Virus record (IMG/VR): IMGVR_UViG_3300008255_000350
Span: 1-30,262 of that record
Direction: 5' to 3' (one strand)
Length of the DNA stretch: 30,262 nucleotides
DNA from: a virus
Lineage: Duplodnaviria > Caudoviricetes
Shown here: one piece after another, positions 1 through 9,886 of the stretch
How the letters are laid out: each line of letters opens with the position of its first letter
Position numbering within the stretch: position 1 is the first letter of the stretch
Notes under the pieces: generated by a model
What the model saw: the letters and a program-made list of their open reading frames with translations, nothing else
Databases searched by the model: none
Told to the model about the DNA's origin: nothing
Program-made: the position numbers and the translations under genes

Positions 1-392
1 ACCTCCTCCCGGCCGGTGTTGATTGCCGCATCCAGGCGCTTGTTCTCTTCTTCTTCCCGCCTGCGCCGCTCTTCCTCCCGCCTGACCCGCTCTTGCTCTG
101 TCAGGTAATCTGACATCTGCTTTTTTACAAGGCGCTCAGCTTTTGCAAGTGGGGACCTGAAGCGGTCTATCTCAATTACGACAGCTTTTCTCTTTTCCTC
201 TGCTGCGCGCTTTAAGTCCTGCGCCTCTTTCAGCGCGGGATCAAAGTGTTCCTCCACCAACTTGACCGTTTGTTTGCAGGCGACAAGGAGCCGGTTCGCT
301 TCATCGAGTGAGCCCTGATCCCTGACCGTGACCGACTGGAGATTGGCGACGACTGATTCAACTGTTTTTTGGAGATCTTTCTTTTCTGTCAT
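1..392 (-). CDS. Partial phage coiled-coil protein (MTEKKDLQKTVESVVANLQSVTVRDQGSLDEANRLL...), runs off the left edge
   Basis: Read manually, not in the ORF track. ATG at 392 overlaps the recT stop (ATGA); open to the window edge; E/R-rich coiled coil (EQERVRREEERRRREEEE). Confidence 0.75.
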   Translation of the reverse strand, partial: MTEKKDLQKTVESVVANLQSVTVRDQGSLDEANRLLVACKQTVKLVEEHFDPALKEAQDLKRAAEEKRKAVVIEIDRFRSPLAKAERLVKKQMSDYLTEQERVRREEERRRREEEENKRLDAAINTGREE

Positions 393-1192
393 TCCGCCGC
401 CACCTCATAGTCTCCGTCGATGGTGTCGAGGTTCAGCTCCGGGTCGTCGGGATTGATCCGGTAAGCGCGGTTGTCGGCGCTTGCGGCGGTGGCGATCTCT
501 ACAGACTTGGGGGCGTAGCGTAGCAGGTCGATCATCACGGTTTTGCACGCCATCTGATCGAAGTTCGTCTGCCAGGGGCCAGAGGCGAAAGACTTGCTGT
601 ACTGCTTTGCGTGCTTCTCGACCTTATCCCGAGACCACACACGGAAATCATAACCGCCGTTAGTCAGCTCATACTGAGCGTAGAAAAACACGGTATTCCC
701 GGTCGGGGTTTTCGATGGGTCGTGGATGAGCTTCGGATTCAAGCCGTATGAGTATTCAAACGTGTCCGCCTCATCCACTGCCATGGCAGTCAGCCTCCGG
801 TACTGCCCGGTTCGGTGCGCAAGGTCAACGATCCCCTTGTACCCCATCTGAAACTGAGCATCTACGCGGCCGAGCTTCCGGTTCTCATACGGGATTATGT
901 AGCACTGCCCGAGGGGTGTATTCGGTTCGAGTCCGAGCTGCGCCGCCTGCATGATTGACCACATGAGAGAGAGCGCGTCAGCCTGTCCGAGCTTCGGGTT
1001 GTTCCTGACGGCGGTCAGGGCGACGCGGGCAAGTCTCTCGGTTGTGACATGCTTCGGGAGCGCCTTCTCGAGCTGTGGCTTGAGCCTTTCGATCATTGCG
1101 CCGATACTGTCGCTTTTTTTCGCGACAGACTGCGGCTTGCTGTTCGTGGTGGCGGTATTTTTTCCGGCCTCTTGTGTTCCGTCTGCTTTCAT
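389..1192 (-). CDS. recT: RecT-family single-strand annealing recombinase
   Basis: Motifs ALPKHVTTERLAR, AAQLGLEPNTPLGQCYIIPY, QFQMGYKGIVDLAHR, PWQTNFDQMACKTV; AAGGAG RBS; next to a YqaJ exonuclease. Confidence 0.93.
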   Translation of the reverse strand: MKADGTQEAGKNTATTNSKPQSVAKKSDSIGAMIERLKPQLEKALPKHVTTERLARVALTAVRNNPKLGQADALSLMWSIMQAAQLGLEPNTPLGQCYIIPYENRKLGRVDAQFQMGYKGIVDLAHRTGQYRRLTAMAVDEADTFEYSYGLNPKLIHDPSKTPTGNTVFFYAQYELTNGGYDFRVWSRDKVEKHAKQYSKSFASGPWQTNFDQMACKTVMIDLLRYAPKSVEIATAASADNRAYRINPDDPELNLDTIDGDYEVAAE

Positions 1193-1201
1193 GTTTTCTC
1201 C

Positions 1202-2176
1202 TTAAATGATCTTCACGGACATACGTCCGCTCTCTGTTAATCCGACCCGGTGGTGATCTGTGACCCCATACCGTGACCGGCCCATAGCCTGGATTATCTT
1301 TTGCTTGACCTTCTCGCGTTCGTCGGTCCGGTCGTCAATCTCAACCTTGAGATCGATGTACCGGAGGATGTCGTTCTCATACCCTGAGAGGTCGATTGTG
1401 GTATCATCCGAGAAAGCCCGCTCCTGCATGAGAGCGTCATAGTCGGCATCCGATCCACCAGGGAGTGGGAAGTAAAGCGGGTCGTTCATCTGGATGATTT
1501 CCCACAGGTCAGCCTCGGCGGCGTTCAGACGTGAGATAAACTCATCGTTCCGGGTGACGATTCTCAGCACGCGGATATTTCCGATGAGTCCGAAAGTCCA
1601 CCATTCATCAAGGCCGGTCCCTGCCATGTAGTGCTGATCTTGGCAGTAGTAGGGGTCAGGTAATTCGTCCCCATCTTTCCCGCCCCAGTTCTTCAGCTGG
1701 TAGGATGATCCGGTCTTGATCTCAAGACCGACGGTTCTGGCCTTCGGCTCCATCTTCATCCCGTCCGCTCCGAGTGATAGTTCTGCCCGGTCGCATATGT
1801 TCAGGAATCCATCAGGATTGATAATCTGCCACGGTCTCTCTATATTTCTGTACATGTGAGTCGGGTCCATTACCTGTACTTCGATTCCGAACTGATCCCT
1901 GACGAACGGCGCTACCATCTCCCGGCGGATAAACGATTCAAGGATGTTTCCGACCTGGATTACTTCTTTGTCCGAGATATCCGGGGGCGTGTATCTCCCG
2001 GTCTTTTCCATGCAGACTGTCAGGGGTGAGCCGTAATCCGACATCCCCATGCAGGCGGCGGCGTCTGATCCTCCGATACCTTGCCGCCGGAGGGCAAGCC
2101 AATCCTCATGGGAAAGATCTGCGTAGGCTGCGATGGGGGTGCATTCGGGGAGGTTAATCATTTTCCTGCTTTCCAT
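1202..2176 (-). CDS. YqaJ-like viral recombinase / lambda-type exonuclease (start may be 2161)
   Basis: WLALRRQGIGGSDAAACMG, NPDG, LEIKT, PDPYYCQDQHYM motifs; upstream of recT. Confidence 0.92.
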   Translation of the reverse strand: MESRKMINLPECTPIAAYADLSHEDWLALRRQGIGGSDAAACMGMSDYGSPLTVCMEKTGRYTPPDISDKEVIQVGNILESFIRREMVAPFVRDQFGIEVQVMDPTHMYRNIERPWQIINPDGFLNICDRAELSLGADGMKMEPKARTVGLEIKTGSSYQLKNWGGKDGDELPDPYYCQDQHYMAGTGLDEWWTFGLIGNIRVLRIVTRNDEFISRLNAAEADLWEIIQMNDPLYFPLPGGSDADYDALMQERAFSDDTTIDLSGYENDILRYIDLKVEIDDRTDEREKVKQKIIQAMGRSRYGVTDHHRVGLTESGRMSVKII

Positions 2177-2423
2177 TCTTCACATGGTTAACAGGAACGA
2201 ACCCTCTCTTTTTGTTAAAACGTGAACGAGCTATAGCATTCTTAACCGTTCTTGCAACAGTCCGCTTAAAAATCTTGATACCGAGAGTGCCTTTCATTGT
2301 GGGGTTGGCCACTAGTGTCTCGGTTTTCTTCTTTGATCGATTATAGACTGCCTTTTTTTTACCGGGCTTACTCCCGCCGAAACAGCCTCTTGCTGATTGC
2401 GCTTTTTTCTTATTTCCGTTCAT
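2154..2423 (-). CDS. Small, very basic (Lys/Arg-rich) hypothetical protein
   Basis: 89-aa ORF with AAGGAG upstream; overlaps the next gene start; no recognised domain. Confidence 0.6.
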   Translation of the reverse strand: MNGNKKKAQSARGCFGGSKPGKKKAVYNRSKKKTETLVANPTMKGTLGIKIFKRTVARTVKNAIARSRFNKKRGFVPVNHVKNGKQEND

Positions 2424-3196
2424 CCCCTGCTCTCCTTAAAATTGCCCGGCGGCGACCTCTTTAACTTCTCCGCCGGGCGAGACTATGGCGTACACTATCG
2501 CTAATTCAGACCTTGCCTCCCCTTTGCTGGCGCATAAGCAACCATTTGATTTTTCACCCATACGGGCTATGGCGCCCGCCGGAATCGAACCGGTCCGCGG
2601 TAGGTCGCCAGCCTACGGGCCCAAAGTTGCCACCTGATTCCCCGGTGGCCCGGTAGGCAATACCCTTTAATCGTGCAGATTCTGCCTATCACTACACGAC
2701 GATCTGGTTTCTACCAGCAATACCCGGTTTCTACCGGCAATAGTCAGCCTCTTCTGACATTACAACCTTTAAGGGTTTAACCAGTGCCCGGGCACTCGAA
2801 CCCGGTGTGTGCCCCGACCCTCGCACCTCTCCACGGGAAACCGCCTCTACCCTTTGCAGCCTCACTGGTTGGCACGTTTAGCTTTGCATGGAAGTTGCCA
2901 GTCCATTGTGCCGGGTACGTCTCCGGCGCGGGGCTTTCACCGCTCGTGGTGCCGTTTTAACCCGTCAACGGGCTATACAGGGCGACGGGAATCGAACCCG
3001 CCGGAGGCTGCTGACCCTCCTGCCTTTCCCTGTAGGCGGAAAACGATAGAAAACCGCCAAGTATAAGATACGGCAACGCCGTTTGTCGGCAGCTGGGGCA
3101 TGATCCCCGCTTCTGCGGTGCGTACTCTGTTCCGCTTCCGCGCCCCTGGCAGGGAGCTTACTGCACTCCTGGGACCGACTGCCGTCTTTCCGGCTG
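2424..3196 (-). ncRNA. Putative structured RNA region with several tRNA-like (closing stem + T-arm) modules
   Basis: No credible ORF; dense hairpins; GGTTCGATTCC T-arms in 2570-2622 and 2976-3034, GGTTCGAGTGCC in 2779-2870; no complete cloverleaf found. Confidence 0.6.
2703..2742. repeat. Tandem 20-bp duplication, each copy a hairpin
   Basis: TCTGGTTTCTACCAGCAATA / CCCGGTTTCTACCGGCAATA; two of the three differences form a compensatory stem pair. Confidence 0.85.
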
Positions 3197-3487
3197 TCAA
3201 AAAACATTCTCCTTGACGTCCATGACGCTACGCGCCACAAGAAGGTTCTGACCTCGTGAAACAAGATTCCTGATCATTCCTACCTGCTCAAGTCTCAATT
3301 CCTCCCCAGGCTTCTTAACCTCGATCCACCAGAGCGAACCATGCCTGCTGATTACCAGAAGGTCCGGTGTCCCCGGAGGGCAGAGCCGGATATTATTCCG
3401 CGCCCTGCCGGAGTTCAGCCGGAACACTAAGAATCTGTTCAGCTCCAAGTATTCGACTATCTGCGCTTGGATTTCTGATTCGGTCAT
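3197..3487 (-). CDS. VRR-NUC domain (PD-(D/E)xK) nuclease, 96 aa
   Basis: MTESEIQAQIVEYL...GTPDL...WIEVKKPG...EQ. Start reassigned to ATG 3487 (AAAGGAG RBS); the longer track ORF merely translates repeat array C. Confidence 0.88.
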   Translation of the reverse strand: MTESEIQAQIVEYLELNRFLVFRLNSGRARNNIRLCPPGTPDLLVISRHGSLWWIEVKKPGEELRLEQVGMIRNLVSRGQNLLVARSVMDVKENVF

Positions 3488-3500
3488 TTCGGTCTCCTTT

Positions 3501-3586
3501 GCCTGCCTTGCCCTGCCTTGCCTTGCCCAGCCATGCCTTGCCATGCCCTGCCCCGCCTTGCCTGCCACGCCCAACCTAACCGGGCC
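3501..3586 (-). repeat. GGY-NN pentamer array C (18 GGY triplets)
   Basis: Minus strand: GGC cc GGT ta GGT tg GGC gt GGC a GGC aa GGC gg GGC ag GGC at GGC aa GGC at GGC tg GGC aa GGC aa GGC ag GGC aa GGC a GGC; fills the intergenic gap. Confidence 0.95.
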
Positions 3587-3588
3587 TG

Positions 3589-4065
3589 CTAAACCGTGAC
3601 GGCCTCGCGCGCCATGTCGAGATGGTGCTGCGCCGTGTCAAGTTCTACCTCTGCGAGATAGCGGTAAACCCTCGCCTTCCGCGACAGCTCCCCGATTGAT
3701 TCCTTGATCTCCCCGAGGATCTGCTTCCTCATGTCTTTGTCGCCGAGAATTGTCCTCGTCGGCATGTACTGGCGCTGATTGTCCACGATGACGGATTCGA
3801 AAGCGCGGTATTCAACGTCCGCTCTGTCCTGGTATTCGTCTACCGTTACGATCCCGCGTATTACCTGCCCAGCTTCCTGGATTCTGTGGAGCCGGGCCGC
3901 TTCCGCGTCGTCCCACGTGAAACACTTATGCAGCTCTGTCTCTTCATCCTCCGCGAAACTGACGATCTCCTCAGGAATCAGTGTTCCGATACTTTCCAGC
4001 TCTTCCCCGATGAGTTCAGCATTTGCCTTGAACCGCGCCCCGCTTTTCCATTTGTAAACGCCCAT
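3589..4065 (-). CDS. Conserved phage hypothetical protein, candidate partner of the RAMP-like protein
   Basis: 158 aa, AGGAGG RBS; motif PEEIV...ELHKCFTWDDAEAARLHRIQEAGQVIR resembles a phage family I recall as LHxxFEWDDxxAAxxYR; flanked by arrays B and C. Confidence 0.8.
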   Translation of the reverse strand: MGVYKWKSGARFKANAELIGEELESIGTLIPEEIVSFAEDEETELHKCFTWDDAEAARLHRIQEAGQVIRGIVTVDEYQDRADVEYRAFESVIVDNQRQYMPTRTILGDKDMRKQILGEIKESIGELSRKARVYRYLAEVELDTAQHHLDMAREAVTV

Positions 4066-4111
4066 CGTTTACCTCCTGTAATGTGTTCGGTATCGCCTAT
4101 GGCTACCGATT

Positions 4112-4162
4112 GCCTGCCCTGCCATGCCGGGCCTTGCCATGCCGCGCCACGCCTTGCCTGCC
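4112..4162 (-). repeat. GGC-NN pentamer array B (11 GGC triplets) followed by a hairpin at 4087-4109
   Basis: Minus strand: GGC a GGC aa GGC gt GGC gc GGC at GGC aa GGC cc GGC at GGC ag GGC a GGC, then TCGGTA-GCC-ATA-GGC-GA-TACCGA. Confidence 0.95.
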
Positions 4163-4173
4163 AAGCGGCGGCG

Positions 4174-4764
4174 CTACTGCGCCACCACCTCAAAACGTCC
4201 GAATGTTCCGTCTTTCTCAGGCCGCCATTCTCCGACACCTACGCCGTACCCGGCAGCGTGGAGCATATTGACGATCTGATCAAAAGACGTGATTGAGCTG
4301 TTGTAGCTTATGTTCAATTCAGCTTCCCAGCCGACGACCTGGCCCCGGAATCGTATGTCGGCGGTTGCGCCGTTCAGCCGGACCATATCCTCCCGGGGGT
4401 GGACCTCGCCCTCTACCGGCACAAGCTCCCGATCGTCGCGGGTGCAATACTCGCCATGAACGAAAAACGATGTCCGAGCGTCGGTCATTACAAGGCCGAT
4501 CTGCTTTGCGCCGCGGATCATTGCCTTCTTGAAAGCATCAGCTGGGAACCCGAGCCTGTCGTCGTCGAGCCGGTACACGCTGGCTTCGTACTGTTCTTCC
4601 GGTGACTTCGCTTCTTTTTTGACAGTTTTTTTCATTTGCTTGTCGAGCATTTCCTTCCGCGCCTTCTCGCTCCATCGGTGCATGATGAGCGGGGAAAGCC
4701 CCTTGATCTTGATTGTCGCCGTCTCCACTTTGATCTTCTGAAGTTCTGCCGTTTTGGTAGCCAT
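4174..4764 (-). CDS. Solo RAMP / Cas7 (Csm3)-like RNA-binding protein, 196 aa
   Basis: RAMP signatures in the right order: IKIKGLSPLIMH (cf. L-x-T-x-SPLHIG), LGFPADAFKKAMIRG (cf. IPGSSLKGALR), C-terminal Gly-rich loop GYGVGVGEWRPEKDGTFGRFEV; TAAGGAGG RBS. Confidence 0.75.
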   Translation of the reverse strand: MATKTAELQKIKVETATIKIKGLSPLIMHRWSEKARKEMLDKQMKKTVKKEAKSPEEQYEASVYRLDDDRLGFPADAFKKAMIRGAKQIGLVMTDARTSFFVHGEYCTRDDRELVPVEGEVHPREDMVRLNGATADIRFRGQVVGWEAELNISYNSSITSFDQIVNMLHAAGYGVGVGEWRPEKDGTFGRFEVVAQ

Positions 4765-4855
4765 TTGCTACCTCCTTACTGTGTGTTACCGCGTTGTCAA
4801 CGACTGCGGTATAAGACGCCGGGGAATTGCACCCCGGTACGCTTACCGTCTTTTT

Positions 4856-4916
4856 GCCTGCCTTGCCTTGCCCAGCCATGCCTCGCCTCGCCGTGCCCTG
4901 CCCCGCCTCGCCTGCC
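4856..4916 (-). repeat. GGC-NN pentamer array A (13 GGC triplets) followed by a T-loop-like hairpin at 4815-4850
   Basis: Minus strand: GGC a GGC ga GGC gg GGC ag GGC ac GGC ga GGC ga GGC at GGC tg GGC aa GGC aa GGC a GGC. Confidence 0.95.
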
Positions 4917-4921
4917 ATATC

Positions 4922-5035
4922 CTACCGCCTCACAAGCTCCTCGCCTGCCTTCTTCTGCCAGTAGATCGCGCTTTGTATCTTGCCAGCTTTCAAGAACATC
5001 AGGGAGAGCCGGAGAAACCTGTCGTACTTGCTCAT
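4922..5035 (-). CDS. 37-aa hypothetical protein (MSKYDRFLRLSLMFLKAGKIQSAIYWQKKAGEELVRR)
   Basis: Below the track cutoff; ATGA overlap with the upstream ORF, GAGG RBS; stops 5 nt before array A. Confidence 0.6.
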   Translation of the reverse strand: MSKYDRFLRLSLMFLKAGKIQSAIYWQKKAGEELVRR

Positions 5036-5226
5036 CGTATGACCTCTTCGAAAACAAGCTGACTATTGACGTTCAGGAATTGTTCAAAGGTCTCAGCCGG
5101 GTGGTACCCCGTAATCTCCCGGACTTCCTTCTGATCGCACCCTTTCAGCTTCAAGCGTTCGGTCTGCCGGTAAATTATTCCGAGTTCGTTTATCGGGCGG
5201 GGTGAGGGATTTTCAAACATCTTCAT
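5032..5226 (-). CDS. 64-aa hypothetical protein
   Basis: ATGA-coupled on both sides; GGAGG upstream. Confidence 0.65.
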   Translation of the reverse strand: MKMFENPSPRPINELGIIYRQTERLKLKGCDQKEVREITGYHPAETFEQFLNVNSQLVFEEVIR

Positions 5227-5384
5227 GAGGCCTCCGGGCGGTTTGCCTGTTCCATCGATTCGACATGCTCCTCAAGCATGATTTCAACCTGCTTCGTAAA
5301 CGAACGCCTCTCGCGCTGTGCGATCTCAAGCACCGTATCGGCTATTCGTTTATCCATCGATATTGTCTTTGTTATCCTGTCCAT
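5223..5384 (-). CDS. Ribbon-helix-helix (Arc/CopG-like) regulator, 53 aa (MDRITKTISMDKRIADTVLEIAQRERRSFTKQVEIMLEEH...)
   Basis: Read manually; alternating N-terminal beta strand, helix, then A-x-x-E-x-R-S-F-x-x-Q-V pattern typical of Arc-like proteins; first gene after a promoter. Confidence 0.75.
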   Translation of the reverse strand: MDRITKTISMDKRIADTVLEIAQRERRSFTKQVEIMLEEHVESMEQANRPEAS

Positions 5385-5390
5385 ATGATC

Positions 5391-5428
5391 AGTATACACC
5401 CTTTCAAAACATTGTCAATTTTTTTTTT
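5391..5428 (-). promoter_or_regulatory. Strong sigma70-type early promoter
   Basis: A10 tract directly upstream of TTGACA (5418-5413), 16-nt spacer, TATACT (5396-5391), then 6 nt to the ATG at 5384. Confidence 0.8.
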
Positions 5429-6278
5429 GCGAATTATTGATATTTAATGAATCAATGAATTCTGCGTCGTCGACCTGGCTGTGGTCATAGAATCGCTTTG
5501 TCACCCTGATATCGGCGTGCCCCAGCTCTTCAGATGCTTTGGAGATTCCCAGGCGTTCAGAAAGAAGTGTTCCCCGGCAGTGCCGTATCATGTGGGCCGA
5601 TGTCCGTTTACCTATCGTCCGCTCAGCGTGGCGCCGGATGGCGGTTGTGATGTGCATCCTGTCGTATGGGGCGCCCCTGTGGTCGAACAGGTATTTCTCC
5701 CCGGAGAAGTATTCCACGATTTTGTCATAGAGTTCTGCCGTGCACCTTATGGTCCGCTCTTTGTTCCCCTTGCCGGTTATGCGGATGTAGCAGAGTTCCC
5801 CGGATCGCCTCACATGCCGGTGCTCAGTCCAGAGCGCCTCGGATATCCGGCAGGATGATTCCCAGAGGAAGCGGATAATCAGGGCCAAGTGTCCCGGGGC
5901 CGTTTCGATCAGCTTTGCCACCTCTTCGGGGGTCGGCACCGCGTCGGCCTTCTTGATACCTCCGTGCTGCTTCTTTGACTTGAGCTTGCCCAGGGCCCGC
6001 TCAACCTTGAACCGCTGCGCCTCGGTCATGTCCGAGTTGTCGGCGGCTATCCTGATTGCCTGCTTGATCGCCTTCAGGTGCTGGTTGTAGGCGGCGGCAC
6101 CCAGGGTCAGCTCCCGGAGATAGTGAGAAGCCCCTGACACGATGTCATGCCCTGATTCCTCCAGATACTTCTGATACCGGATTACCGCGTGCCGGTACTG
6201 CTTGTTGACCATGTTTTCAAGGCGTGACTGAGGAAGCCCGCCAGCGCCTACCAATTCCCGATTGTTACCCTTTGGCAT
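5415..6278 (-). CDS. Tyrosine recombinase (XerC/D-like, no arm-binding domain)
   Basis: Catalytic set: CRISE (R), GKGNKER (K), HMIRH (HxxR), LGH, FYDH (Y); 287 aa; GGAGG RBS. Confidence 0.92.
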   Translation of the reverse strand: MPKGNNRELVGAGGLPQSRLENMVNKQYRHAVIRYQKYLEESGHDIVSGASHYLRELTLGAAAYNQHLKAIKQAIRIAADNSDMTEAQRFKVERALGKLKSKKQHGGIKKADAVPTPEEVAKLIETAPGHLALIIRFLWESSCRISEALWTEHRHVRRSGELCYIRITGKGNKERTIRCTAELYDKIVEYFSGEKYLFDHRGAPYDRMHITTAIRRHAERTIGKRTSAHMIRHCRGTLLSERLGISKASEELGHADIRVTKRFYDHSQVDDAEFIDSLNINNSQKKN

Positions 6279-6336
6279 AGACCCTCCGTATATTGCCTCC
6301 TGCCTTCGCTGGTGGCCCTGTGAGCTACTTTCTCAG

Positions 6337-6365
6337 ACTATATCATAGAGGGATACCTCTTGCAA
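6337..6365 (-). promoter_or_regulatory. Promoter of the recombinase gene
   Basis: TTGCAA (6365-6360), 17-nt spacer ending in TGA (extended -10), TATAGT (6342-6337). Confidence 0.65.
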
Positions 6366-6387
6366 CGTACTACCCCTTATGTTGTAT
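6360..6387. other. dif-like 11-6-11 recombination site
   Basis: TTGCAACGTAC-TACCCC-TTATGTTGTAT; arms are 7/11 inverted; right arm matches the XerD arm TTATGTTAAAT at 9/11. Confidence 0.5.
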
Positions 6388-6435
6388 TGGTAAAATGGGG
6401 CGTGTTGTTAATTTCGGGGGTTAATTTATGGGGAG

Positions 6436-6465
6436 AAATAAAAGCCGGGGGCCAAAACCCCCGGC
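6436..6465 (-). terminator. Rho-independent terminator ending the late operon
   Basis: Minus strand GCCGGGGG-TTTTGG-CCCCCGGC followed by TTTTATTT. Confidence 0.85.
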
Positions 6466-6503
6466 AAAGGCTCAGGTGGCGGAGAAGAACCGCCAGGACC
6501 GGG

Positions 6504-6743
6504 TCAGTCTCTTGTGAGCTTCTTATATCTCGCCCGCGCAGTCTTATCGCTCACTCCGAGCATTTCGGAAAGCTGGTCTTTGTTTTTGATAGGCCAGTAC
6601 TTTATGAGTATGGCATCCTCTTCTGCCGTCCAGACCTTACCCGGGCGAATATTGGAATCGTCTATCTTTTCTATTTGCTCCAACATCTCGGGCGATATGG
6701 TGAGTTTATCCGCTGGTGTTATTTCTTTCCTTTGGTCAGACAC
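6504..6743 (-). CDS. Small SANT/Myb-like HTH protein
   Basis: WTAEEDAILIKYW...LSEMLGVSDKTARARYKKL; GTG start with GAGGGAG RBS. Confidence 0.75.
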   Translation of the reverse strand: MSDQRKEITPADKLTISPEMLEQIEKIDDSNIRPGKVWTAEEDAILIKYWPIKNKDQLSEMLGVSDKTARARYKKLTRD

Positions 6744-7528
6744 GTGTACTCCCTCTTCGCGTAGTTTTTGATAGGCATGAGAATCGGGCGGATGAAAGCC
6801 TCCCGGCTCTTCGGGTCAATCTCAATCAAGGTGAATCCAAAGTCGTATTTCCATGTCCTGAGGCGCCGGGTAAAGCTTGACTGTTTCGGTCCCCTGAGTT
6901 CTAAGGCGGGCGCGGTGTAGACTGTCCGCATGATTCCCCGGGCGCTGTCGGCTGTCCTGACTTCGAAACAGTAGTGAACGTGAGCCCGGAGAAGGATGTC
7001 GGCTGCCTGGTAATCCTCAAACTCAGATTGCAGGATGTCATTGATCAGCTCTTTTTGCATTTGGGTCTGCTGGCCGTATGGGATATCAGACCTGCCGACT
7101 ACATGCCGGACATGGATCCTCCTTCCGTATATTTCAAGCCTGAGTTCATCCTGTGCCTTGATTCCAAACTCACGGGCAATCTGATCTTCGTAGGCGGTAT
7201 GGCCGTCGGTGTGAAAACCTGTACCCCTGACGATATGCACGCGGTCAGCTTTCGGGAGCATGATGATTCTCTCGGCCATGAGAGCCTGCTCCCCGACATC
7301 GGTTGCCAGGTGGCTGGTGGTCTCTTTGTACCCCGGTCCGTCGATGGCATCCCCGTTGACGATAAGTTCGTCCACACGACCTATCTGCTTCACAGCGTCA
7401 GCGTAGAAGTTCCACGCGGGTACCTGCCATGATTTGCAATCCTCCCGGTGCCACTCTGGTGGAGTGAGGCCGAGAAGGTGCCCGGCGTGCATATCGTTAA
7501 TCAAGAGGATTCTGTGGTAACCTGGCAC
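6719..7528 (-). CDS. Calcineurin-like metallophosphoesterase
   Basis: DMH (DxH), NGDAIDG (GDxxD), GTGFH replacing GNH, VRH, AHVH (GHxH). Confidence 0.82.
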   Translation of the reverse strand: MPGYHRILLINDMHAGHLLGLTPPEWHREDCKSWQVPAWNFYADAVKQIGRVDELIVNGDAIDGPGYKETTSHLATDVGEQALMAERIIMLPKADRVHIVRGTGFHTDGHTAYEDQIAREFGIKAQDELRLEIYGRRIHVRHVVGRSDIPYGQQTQMQKELINDILQSEFEDYQAADILLRAHVHYCFEVRTADSARGIMRTVYTAPALELRGPKQSSFTRRLRTWKYDFGFTLIEIDPKSREAFIRPILMPIKNYAKREYTCLTKGKK

Positions 7529-7830
7529 TAAAAGAAGAGCCTCACAACCTCGGGCAGCATTGACATGAGGCCGATGATTAAGCCGTAGACAACAAGCCGC
7601 CTGTCAAAAGTATCGCCCCTCTTTCTGTTCCTCTCATCCATGGCAATCTTGACAGGGCAGGTCAATTCCCGGTTGAGAACGATATCTGTCACCCGCTCAT
7701 TGAGTTGCTTGATATCTCCGGCCTGCTCTTTAACGGCCTGGATAAGACCGTTTCCGCAGACGATAGTATGGAGCTCGGTGATCTTTGAGTTCATGTCGAT
7801 GATTTGTCTGTCCAATTCTTCGCGCTCCAT
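7528..7830 (-). CDS. Coiled-coil protein with C-terminal TM helix (lysis-associated / holin-like)
   Basis: C-terminal hydrophobic LVVYGLIIGLMSMLPEVVRLFF; follows the spanins. Confidence 0.6.
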   Translation of the reverse strand: MEREELDRQIIDMNSKITELHTIVCGNGLIQAVKEQAGDIKQLNERVTDIVLNRELTCPVKIAMDERNRKRGDTFDRRLVVYGLIIGLMSMLPEVVRLFF

Positions 7831-8075
7831 TATTCCGAGTATTCCGCTCTGATGGCTTTATATTTCTTCTCGACCGCTTCCACGTCGATATAAAACTCGG
7901 CTATCTGAATCCAAAGCTCTACCGGGATTATTACTGTCCCGGCTTCATCGTCGTATTCAACGCCGAAAGGAGCCGGTGGATCGGGGAAATCAATCTCCGG
8001 CGGGAGGATCGTCTCCGTCACTATTTCCGGCGAGCTTACGCATGATATCAGTAGCAGCGCGGCCAGGATTATCAT
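7830..8075 (-). CDS. o-spanin (Rz1-like lipoprotein)
   Basis: MIILAALLLISC lipobox, Pro-rich linker; overlaps the 3' end of the i-spanin in another frame (start 8075 or 8111). Confidence 0.75.
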   Translation of the reverse strand: MIILAALLLISCVSSPEIVTETILPPEIDFPDPPAPFGVEYDDEAGTVIIPVELWIQIAEFYIDVEAVEKKYKAIRAEYSE

Positions 8076-8307
8076 CAGACCGGACTTTACGTTTCTTGTC
8101 GGCTGTCTCACGGTTTACCTCCTCAATGGCTTTTATGATGTGATCGCGTTTTTTTATCTCATCTTTAAGAGTAGACACCTCTCTCCGGTGGGCGCGGTCT
8201 TTGGCCTGCATCTGCTGAGAGAGCTTCATTGATTTTTTAAGCTGTGCCACGAAAAGCCAAATGGCGCCCGCCGAAACTGCGCTTGCGATTATCGCCCAGG
8301 TTATCAT
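7990..8307 (-). CDS. i-spanin (Rz-like)
   Basis: N-terminal TM (MITWAIIASAVSAGAIWLFVA) then coiled coil; GGAGG RBS before ATG 8307. Confidence 0.75.
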   Translation of the reverse strand: MITWAIIASAVSAGAIWLFVAQLKKSMKLSQQMQAKDRAHRREVSTLKDEIKKRDHIIKAIEEVNRETADKKRKVRSDDNPGRAATDIMRKLAGNSDGDDPPAGD

Positions 8308-8579
8308 GTTTCCTCCAATGTGCATTGACCTTTTACTACCCGCCACTCATTCGCGTAATCGCGGTTGTGCAATCTTACGTTCATCGTGGCTGCGTAAACC
8401 GTTTGATCGTATTCACTCCGGGTAGTGCAGAGCCTTTCATAGATCTCCGTCTCCCCCTCAAAAATATAGACTGTGTTTTCCGCTGGCTGCCAGATCGGTT
8501 CAGGGATTACCGGAGCCTCGAATATCTCAAAAAGCTGAGCGCAAGCGATAAGGATCAGGCTAAGCCAAACGAACCGCAT
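8304..8579 (-). CDS. Hypothetical exported/lipoprotein-like protein
   Basis: MRFVWLSLILIAC signal-like N-terminus; stop overlaps the i-spanin start. Confidence 0.55.
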   Translation of the reverse strand: MRFVWLSLILIACAQLFEIFEAPVIPEPIWQPAENTVYIFEGETEIYERLCTTRSEYDQTVYAATMNVRLHNRDYANEWRVVKGQCTLEET

Positions 8580-8790
8580 GCCGGAACCCGGTGTCGCGCG
8601 AGAGCATGGCACAGCGGAGAGCTGCGGCTTTCATAACCTGATCTTTCTCATCTTCGAGAAACTCACGATCCTGAATCACTTCGAGAATCTCCCGCTCTTG
8701 ATCGACGGTCTCTTTGGTTCCGTCCTCTTTTGTCTGTTCGACCTGTACCGTTTCCATTTCGCCTGTGTGCTTGATTATTTCAATTTTCAT
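8560..8790 (-). CDS. 76-aa acidic hypothetical protein
   Basis: AAGGAG RBS; directly after the tail fibre gene. Confidence 0.7.
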   Translation of the reverse strand: MKIEIIKHTGEMETVQVEQTKEDGTKETVDQEREILEVIQDREFLEDEKDQVMKAAALRCAMLSRDTGFRHAVRLA

Positions 8791-8800
8791 ATCGATCTCC

Positions 8801-9886
8801 TTATGCTACGTATGATCTGCCAAAAAGATAGACATATGCCGCCATGTTGCGGGGGCGGGTCTCGCCTGCGGTTGTTGCGGATACTCGTGCATCCGGGGAG
8901 CTGGCTGAATCAAACCACATAGTTTTTATAGTGTCACTTCCAACAAGCCCTGTATTTCTCCGCGGGCCGGAAGCGTCAGATACAGCAAAAGCACCGTTGG
9001 TTGTTACACTCGCCCCTTCTGAAGCCCCCATCACGAAAATTGCTCCTGCTGTCAAATCCCCTGTGATCTTTTGCATCTGATCGAGCTTACGGAATCCACT
9101 TACACGGTCAGAGCCTTCGGACATAATCGCGTATCCGTCGATGGCAAAGAGGCGGGCAGTAGTCGTTGATCCTGCGACGCGGTGGCGATAGAAGGAGGCT
9201 GTAGCGGTTACGCCTCCCGAGTTATTGGATGCGGCATAAGCAAAGGAGATTGTACGGGCGAGTGTGTCAACATCGGTGATTGCGTAATCCCCAGCTGCAA
9301 TGTCACCGATGGCAGAGGCGAGCGTGATTGTCTGCCAGTTGCCGTATCCTCCGTGGGAGAGGTTATCCTCTCCGAGCACACCGAGAATTCCGTTCTCAGC
9401 GTCGGTATCGGAAAAGGTAAGCGTGGCAACGTTTGAGACGATCGCCCAGTTCGTCACGCTGAATTGATACTTCTCCCCGGTCTTATTGTGCATCCAGTAT
9501 GCAGGGCGAGCGCGGAGAAGCGGTACAAGGTCCGGCCAGTTGGTGGAGGAGATGTCTTCGTAGCTCTCAATCTCCGAGAGGCAGACAGCCGGGTTGAAGT
9601 CGTCCGGGTTGTCTTTGTCGAAAGCAGAGGGAGCCTCATACTCTTCCGAGGCATAGACTTCACCGAGCCTTTTACCGTACTGCACTGCAAGGCCTTTGAT
9701 TGCCGCGAGGATATATTCATTACTTCCCGCCGCCTCTGCAATCCCGAGCGCATCCTGAATACCGATAAGCTCAGACTGAGCATCGTTCATAAAGTCGGCT
9801 GTAATCTGCGTTCCCGTCGGGTTCGTGATAGGGTCGTAGTCTACAAACTCATTTGAGACGTGCCCCGGTCCTGCTATCTTTCTCAT
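8801..9886 (-). CDS. Tail fibre protein
   Basis: N-terminal Mu-S-like GTQITADFMNDAQSEL; C-terminal DQMQKITG...GAF...ETRPRNMA fibre-tip motif; follows the baseplate genes. Confidence 0.82.
   Translation of the reverse strand: MRKIAGPGHVSNEFVDYDPITNPTGTQITADFMNDAQSELIGIQDALGIAEAAGSNEYILAAIKGLAVQYGKRLGEVYASEEYEAPSAFDKDNPDDFNPAVCLSEIESYEDISSTNWPDLVPLLRARPAYWMHNKTGEKYQFSVTNWAIVSNVATLTFSDTDAENGILGVLGEDNLSHGGYGNWQTITLASAIGDIAAGDYAITDVDTLARTISFAYAASNNSGGVTATASFYRHRVAGSTTTARLFAIDGYAIMSEGSDRVSGFRKLDQMQKITGDLTAGAIFVMGASEGASVTTNGAFAVSDASGPRRNTGLVGSDTIKTMWFDSASSPDARVSATTAGETRPRNMAAYVYLFGRSYVA

Follow-up and report, generated by a model that had tools for sequence, protein, structure and literature searches.

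The analysed stretch of DNA (30,262 nucleotides; the window) is the whole of a phage record that is about 73% complete. The record includes portal, terminase, Mu-like head and tail genes, RecT, YqaJ, VRR-NUC and an integrase-like gene. Its minus strand carries three tracts of GGY-NN pentamers, A, B and C, each with GGCAGGC at either end. Tract A (4856..4916, -; brackets 4916-4910 and 4862-4856), read from the sequence as a predicted vrRNA, lies upstream of the vipr gene and has 10 NN units (GA GG AG AC GA GA AT TG AA AA). Tract B (4112..4162, -) sits between vipr and an accessory gene and has eight NN units between its brackets (AA GT GC AT AA CC AT AG). Tract C (3501..3566, -) has 11 (AA GG AG AT AA AT TG AA AA AG AA) and reaches into the ribosome-binding site that precedes VRR-NUC (ATG at 3487). 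In all three, the core opens with TGGCAGGC and closes with GGCAGGCAA. GGY triplets number 13, 11 and 18 in A, B and C, or 42 in all, and the consecutive GGYNN units number 11, 9 and 11, whereas 200 dinucleotide-Markov copies of the window gave no run longer than 4. Spurious ORFs cross the tracts; translated as peptides, the guides resemble Vipr, the accessory protein and the neighbouring proteins no better than chance.

A short block of four NN (CC TA TG GT; 3567..3590, -) precedes C and includes two GGT triplets. At its opening stands a degenerate AGCAGGC, which shares letters with the TAG stop of the accessory gene, and the closest relative, L001, also has an array starting at TAG-CAGGC. Only 6 of 125 in-phase units in relatives have four NN or fewer, and the block is likely a truncated guide. 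GGCAGGC is found six further times in the window beyond the three cores. Upstream of guide A, 33 nt away, there is another GGCAGGC; the units in between (4917-4949, -) are degenerate and out of phase, possibly a decayed guide. The original prediction, made from the letters of the window, gave the codes of A, B and C, the CC TA TG GT block, the brackets and the 42 triplets, all of which we reproduced exactly. It overlooked that vipr and the accessory gene lie between the arrays and that the system (VIPR) is already published.

The gene between A and B (vipr; 4174..4764, -) encodes a RAMP/Cas7-like protein of 196 aa. A phmmer search with this ORF matched PDB 36pp_D, ‘SUSP1 Vipr protein’, at E=2.5e-4, and a profile of 55 sequences matched the same chain at E=1.4e-10, its sole PDB match at E<=0.1. 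The AlphaFold model (pLDDT 92) gave 88 Foldseek matches at E<=0.001, with Csm3 and type VII Cas7 chains at the top. The protein is a small stand-alone RAMP with an RRM core, a thumb and a G-loop (GVGEWRP), homologous to a known Vipr. Its GGY-contact residues are conserved by alignment: H29, R140, E179, W180 and R181 align with SUSP1 H17, R138, D177, W178 and R179 (E179 being a change from D to E), which the accessible part of the SUSP1 report assigns to GGY binding (10.64898/2026.04.26.720927). R140, W180 and R181 are invariant in the 55 homologues and H29 is at least 90% conserved. The equivalent of SUSP1 K33 is ambiguous, as two alignments disagree.

Between B and C lies the accessory gene (3589..4065, -; 158 aa), which is vap-like and conserved beside vipr. 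Of 58 related viral loci, 52 have a homologue no more than 3 kb from vipr, as a vap gene should. The protein matches phrog_15946, a family whose function is not known. Foldseek found no match to its fold at E<=0.001, with weak winged-helix rows, and VIA-align matches cover the C-terminal helical hairpin only (Z<=7.4). Its matches among cultured phages are to Mycobacterium and Gordonia phages only, which have the same gene pair and bracketed arrays. In mycobacteriophages the vipr-vap-array module (L135:1395-2855) is a present/absent insert before an excisionase gene, found in 27 of 201 matching records, and annotations there give the arrays as hypothetical proteins or include them in the vipr ORF.

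RecT and YqaJ (389-2176, -) and VRR-NUC (3197-3487, -) lie just downstream of the module, the RecT/YqaJ genes at a distance of 1.3 kb. In the 58 relatives, none of the three was seen next to vipr. The stretch from 2400 to 3200 has few ORFs and several hairpin-like and GAATCGAACC motifs; a tRNA-Sec-like Rfam match at 2977-3033 is weak (E=0.06, below gathering), and ARAGORN found no tRNA. A sigma-70-like promoter match (5391..5418, -) fits 11 of 12 consensus positions and lies upstream of two small ORFs and the module; it is a candidate only, with two such sites found and 1.5 expected. The small ORFs (5223-5399 and 5032-5226, -) lie between this candidate and guide A and have no Pfam or PHROG match; the first presumably resembles a ribbon-helix-helix regulator. 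The neighbouring integrase has no close relative in viral contigs (best 30%).

We interpret the tracts, together with vipr and the accessory gene that lie between them, as a phage VIPR module in which each bracketed tract is likely one guide RNA, with a probability of about 0.9; this kind of system was published in 2026 (10.64898/2026.04.26.720920). The locus is minimal, with a vap-like accessory gene and no cas genes, and its tandem GGY/NN pentamers are adjacent to vipr and hypervariable at NN. The guides hold 10, 8 and 11 NN, and 9–16 repeats are typical of VIPR guides.

The brackets were surveyed in relatives as unique segments of at most 120 nt running from GGYAGGY to GGYAGGY, of which 38 of the 58 related viral loci supplied 168. 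Pentamer phase was kept in 125 segments, where one in five would be expected, and 43 were out of phase; 104 of the in-phase segments held 8–13 NN. The brackets delimit whole guides, and their role as unit boundaries, proposed in the original prediction, holds in relatives. The spacer base of the bracket is A in 116 of 127 cases. Comparing arrays among relatives bore out the gain and loss of whole bracketed units: the cultured phage Donkeykong has two more of them than Brocalys. The same comparison spoke against the flanking letters that had been counted as bracket parts (TGGC at the opening and GGC-AA at the close), since T precedes the bracket in 40 of 116 cases and AA follows it in 31 of 116; the conserved part is GGYAGGY. 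The proposal that variation sits at NN is borne out as well. Position entropies in relatives are 0.43, 1.01 and 1.27 bits for G, G and Y and 1.91 and 1.95 bits for the two N, so the outcome that would have counted against it, GGY varying as freely as NN, was not seen. Among the relatives' units, 22% have a degenerate second G, a position that is looser there than in the window. Of the 58 loci, 49 have arrays on the same strand as vipr and six on the opposite strand.

In the bracket, GGC-AG as a last unit has its G in common with the following GGC, and GGCAGGC would thus mark the end of one guide and the start of the next. Successive guides are offset by a 1-nt overlap in the window and in relatives. 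From the wording of a figure legend, we infer that GGCAGGC corresponds to the ‘1-nt overlap’ of published staggered arrays: the legend of fig. S18 has processed vrRNAs with ends set by 1-nt overlaps (10.64898/2026.04.26.720920). A term search for ‘GGCAG’ in the supplement text of that paper gave no matches, and staggered arrays are not among its architectures confirmed by sRNA-seq (10.64898/2026.04.26.720920).

We consider cutting of the RNA at the bracket probable and capping the lesser alternative. If capping is correct, the module would still be VIPR, and the bracket would be a phase break that stops filament growth, so that several independent filaments form on one long, unprocessed operon transcript. 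This is a real possibility, well short of an even chance. It fits closing brackets that are followed by no conserved tail or hairpin: neither a shared sequence nor a common fold was found in the tails of the three guides (z = -0.7, -2.0 and +1.5). Guide C continues directly into the ribosome-binding site of the next gene, no ribozyme or other Rfam family reaches gathering score in 2200-6700, and no processing enzyme was identified. Processed ends at 1-nt overlaps, as in the fig. S18 legend, argue against capping, although without sRNA-seq for the staggered architecture (10.64898/2026.04.26.720920), and so does the retention of both brackets by isolated single guides in the window.

The NN pairs of a VIPR guide recognise double-stranded DNA while passing over each third base of the target, and the complex acts by repressing transcription (10.64898/2026.04.26.720920). 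Decoding was tested with 17 guides from six cultured phages under four skip rules against nine phage loci (435,600 bases, both strands). One guide stood out. A guide of Florinda matches the tape-measure gene of Che8 at 19 of 20 bases with a skip of 1 (L139:665-718 and L142, minus strand, 961-932), and the match is wobble-aligned: the base passed over is the third of the codon. Against this guide the tape-measure gene of Florinda itself scores 14/20, and about 1000 shuffles of the guide reach 16 at most. The Che8 stretch is found at 96% identity or more in eight records of four phages (Che8, Squirty, Minnie and Wachhund). GT, not AG, follows the last NN (n=1), so the AG of the bracket is not matched in the Che8 target. 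The other 16 of the 17 guides gave no standout, and none exceeded its own shuffles by more than 2. A larger set of 112 guides had no match of at least 90% at skips 0–2 in 745 kb of related loci, with a weak excess at skip 1 (5 vs 1 at >=85%). The decoded Florinda guide supports the earlier view of the cores as spacer-like, with their information in NN. In the gapped-pattern search proposed with that view, one of 17 guides from cultured relatives stood out at skip 1, and no credible target was found for the window's own A, B and C.

Targets of A, B and C were sought in viral, genome, metagenome and related-phage collections, and none of these searches gave a credible one. The large-collection scans used skip-1 patterns; skips 0, 2 and 3 were tested locally. 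Guide A as a whole had no exact skip-1 locus in the viral collection and none in five vipr-related records. Its units 3–10 matched 25 loci at 17 sites, none extending past two of four further bases. Guide B as a whole matched 17 viral loci, about what we estimate chance to give for 16 bases. Units 1–9 of guide C matched 11 viral loci; the best (21/22; L064, L066 and L067, which are one sequence) lies in a long tape-measure-like ORF of a phage with 38% GC, but has its skip at codon position 2. Units 2–11 had no exact skip-1 locus. The whole of guide C matched three genome and nine metagenome loci at seven distinct sites, all in AT-rich cellular DNA (26–45% GC), including radC and starts of PC4-family genes; the three named genomes are Clostridia or Fusobacteriales. 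We took these 12 exact matches as chance hits of an A-rich pattern, a judgement made without a shuffled control in those collections. With two to three mismatches allowed, A, B and C had no match in 19 capsid-related phage records. The window itself had been searched by eye for a self-target, with none seen, and a computed scan agrees: at skips 0–2 the best matches outside the arrays are at the level of shuffled guides, and at skip 3 every guide matches its own array alone.

By analogy, rival Spirochaetia phages would be the expected target class. Two named homologues hint at a Spirochaetia host without placing the phage: one of Vipr (65%), named from a Spirochaetia bacterium, and one of the capsid protein (63%), from Marispirochaeta aestuarii. 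The target collections are poor in Spirochaetia phages, with 28 capsid-related loci. In both runs analysed, X1 and X2, many unrelated contigs with GGY/NN arrays of 80–90% likeness pile onto the guides (4110-4162 and 4856-4916), which indicates that other VIPR arrays are common in both samples.

Guides A and C resemble each other more than unit shuffling would give (p=0.003). Among guide pairs in relatives, 1 of 178 from the same locus and 4 of 5708 from different loci score as high, in support of the kinship that the original prediction had proposed. They differ at 10 positions in a register of 1350 nt, the distance between their opening brackets. Their longest identity is 27 nt and their in-register identity is 15 nt, a tract at 4894..4908 in A that is identical to 3544..3558 in C.

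A contig from a second study (run X2, contig 8, 18 kb) is identical to window positions 3000-3496, continues with 12 letters and resumes at 4859-5600 with nine differing letters. The implied offset is again 1350. The contig apparently represents a near-identical phage without 1350 nt that hold vipr, guide B and the accessory gene. Two of the nine differing letters are displayed, and both named changes (4889 and 4893) are to the letters of C; 4909 is not listed as changed. On the simplest reading this sister phage carries one A/C hybrid guide, in which the start of A is joined to the units of C, with a presumed crossover within 4894-4908/3544-3558 in this one contig. Short contigs from this run match vipr and A without a difference (4473-4705 and 4681-4908), so vipr-bearing and deletion forms both seem to be present. 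The second of these departs from the window at 4908, the edge of the 15-nt tract, with 21 letters that are not displayed, and could be the reciprocal product of the crossover. An origin of the junction in assembly collapse is unlikely if assembly words were 31 nt, as we assumed, because the in-register identity of A and C is only 15 nt and their longest identity 27 nt.

From this contig we tentatively suggest, as a less than even proposition, that recombination between guides rewrites VIPR guides. Crossovers in short shared GGY/NN tracts would make hybrids and pop the vipr-vap cassette out (or in), possibly aided by the phage RecT/YqaJ, and the X2 phage, with a solo guide of A units 1–3 and C units 4–11, would be a snapshot of the process. 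If true, this would be a route to guide diversification and to the birth of orphan vrRNAs. Loss of vipr-vap that leaves solo guides is already published (10.64898/2026.10.15.759431, accessible part). The literature searched, apart from the breakpoint tables of that paper, yielded no description of a crossover inside the repeats giving a hybrid guide. How VIPR guides change is likewise not explained in the portions of text covered, and the apparent A/C crossover offers a concrete, checkable mechanism.

The X2 contigs also bear on a second and improbable alternative, that the module is decaying and its guides are relics being lost by recombination, with no live targets left. The failure to find targets, the four-unit stub and the decayed bracket at 4949-4943 are what decay would leave; vipr is present in none of the 19 capsid-related phage records; and in X2 the presumed deletion form has a greater depth (8.6) than the contigs with vipr (2.9–5.2), contig depth being a weak measure. 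Set against this, all 42 triplets are intact GGY, the vipr and accessory ORFs are open and 85–95% identical to many homologues, and few Spirochaetia phages are in the target collections. That the tracts are slippage-derived microsatellites or translated low-complexity repeats unconnected with the neighbouring gene is very improbable: spurious ORFs run through them and some relatives' arrays are annotated as hypothetical proteins, but variation is confined to NN, the tracts accompany vipr on the same strand in most related loci, a relative's unit decodes to a rival phage's gene, and the relatives' position entropies and the Vipr match of the neighbouring gene contradict this reading.

A functioning VIPR module would operate as follows. 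The candidate promoter at 5418-5391 would transcribe the module, and the transcript would be cut or capped at the brackets to give three guides. Vipr protomers, one to each pentamer, would line every guide, whose NN pairs would recognise rival DNA in twos, with each third base passed over, and so block transcription. The accessory protein may assist silencing. The targets would be phages or prophages competing in the probably Spirochaetia host, and the outcome would be repression, which we infer since no nuclease is evident in the module. Through their short identity, A and C could also recombine, with loss of vipr and the accessory gene and a single hybrid guide left behind.

As a discovery the main finding adds little, being a further example of the 2026 VIPR system. 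It has some value for the staggered architecture, which the founding paper left without experimental confirmation: the bracket is a unit boundary across 38 loci, and one mycobacteriophage guide is decoded at a 1-nt skip. The host of these cultured mycobacteriophages is M. smegmatis, which allows a direct test of processing at the bracket.

Among known systems, the Cas7/Csm3 backbones of class 1 CRISPR share with Vipr the RAMP fold with a G-loop and the logic of an RNA-guided filament; the code in the window differs in being non-contiguous. Membership of class 1 CRISPR-Cas was considered and rejected, with no repeat-spacer array in window positions 1-9000 and a Pfam scan of 36 ORFs giving no cas domain (in a record about 73% complete).

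VIPR-null phages with solo vrRNAs, going by the accessible part of their description, have lost vipr and vap and kept a guide, as we suggest for the X2 phage; there the loss is a single inherited event, with no mention of a crossover within repeats that would create a hybrid guide (10.64898/2026.10.15.759431). The type II VIPR of SUSP1 (PDB 36PP; 10.64898/2026.04.26.720927, accessible part) is alike in its homologous Vipr, its GGY-binding residues and its pentamer code, although the two Vipr proteins are distant in sequence, as the pairwise E-value indicates. SUSP1 guides end in a conserved pseudoknot tail, and the conserved structured 3' tail that follows each guide in type II VIPR (SUSP1, P. 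fulva) has no counterpart after the guides of the window.

The published staggered arrays of VIPR differ from the window in two respects (10.64898/2026.04.26.720920). They form one long array, whereas the guides here are single, bracketed on both sides and interleaved with genes, and the text of that paper does not spell the boundary as GGCAGGC. They agree with it in being a phage locus of vipr and one accessory gene, with GGY/NN pentamer guides of 8–11 units, a 1-nt phase break and no self-target.
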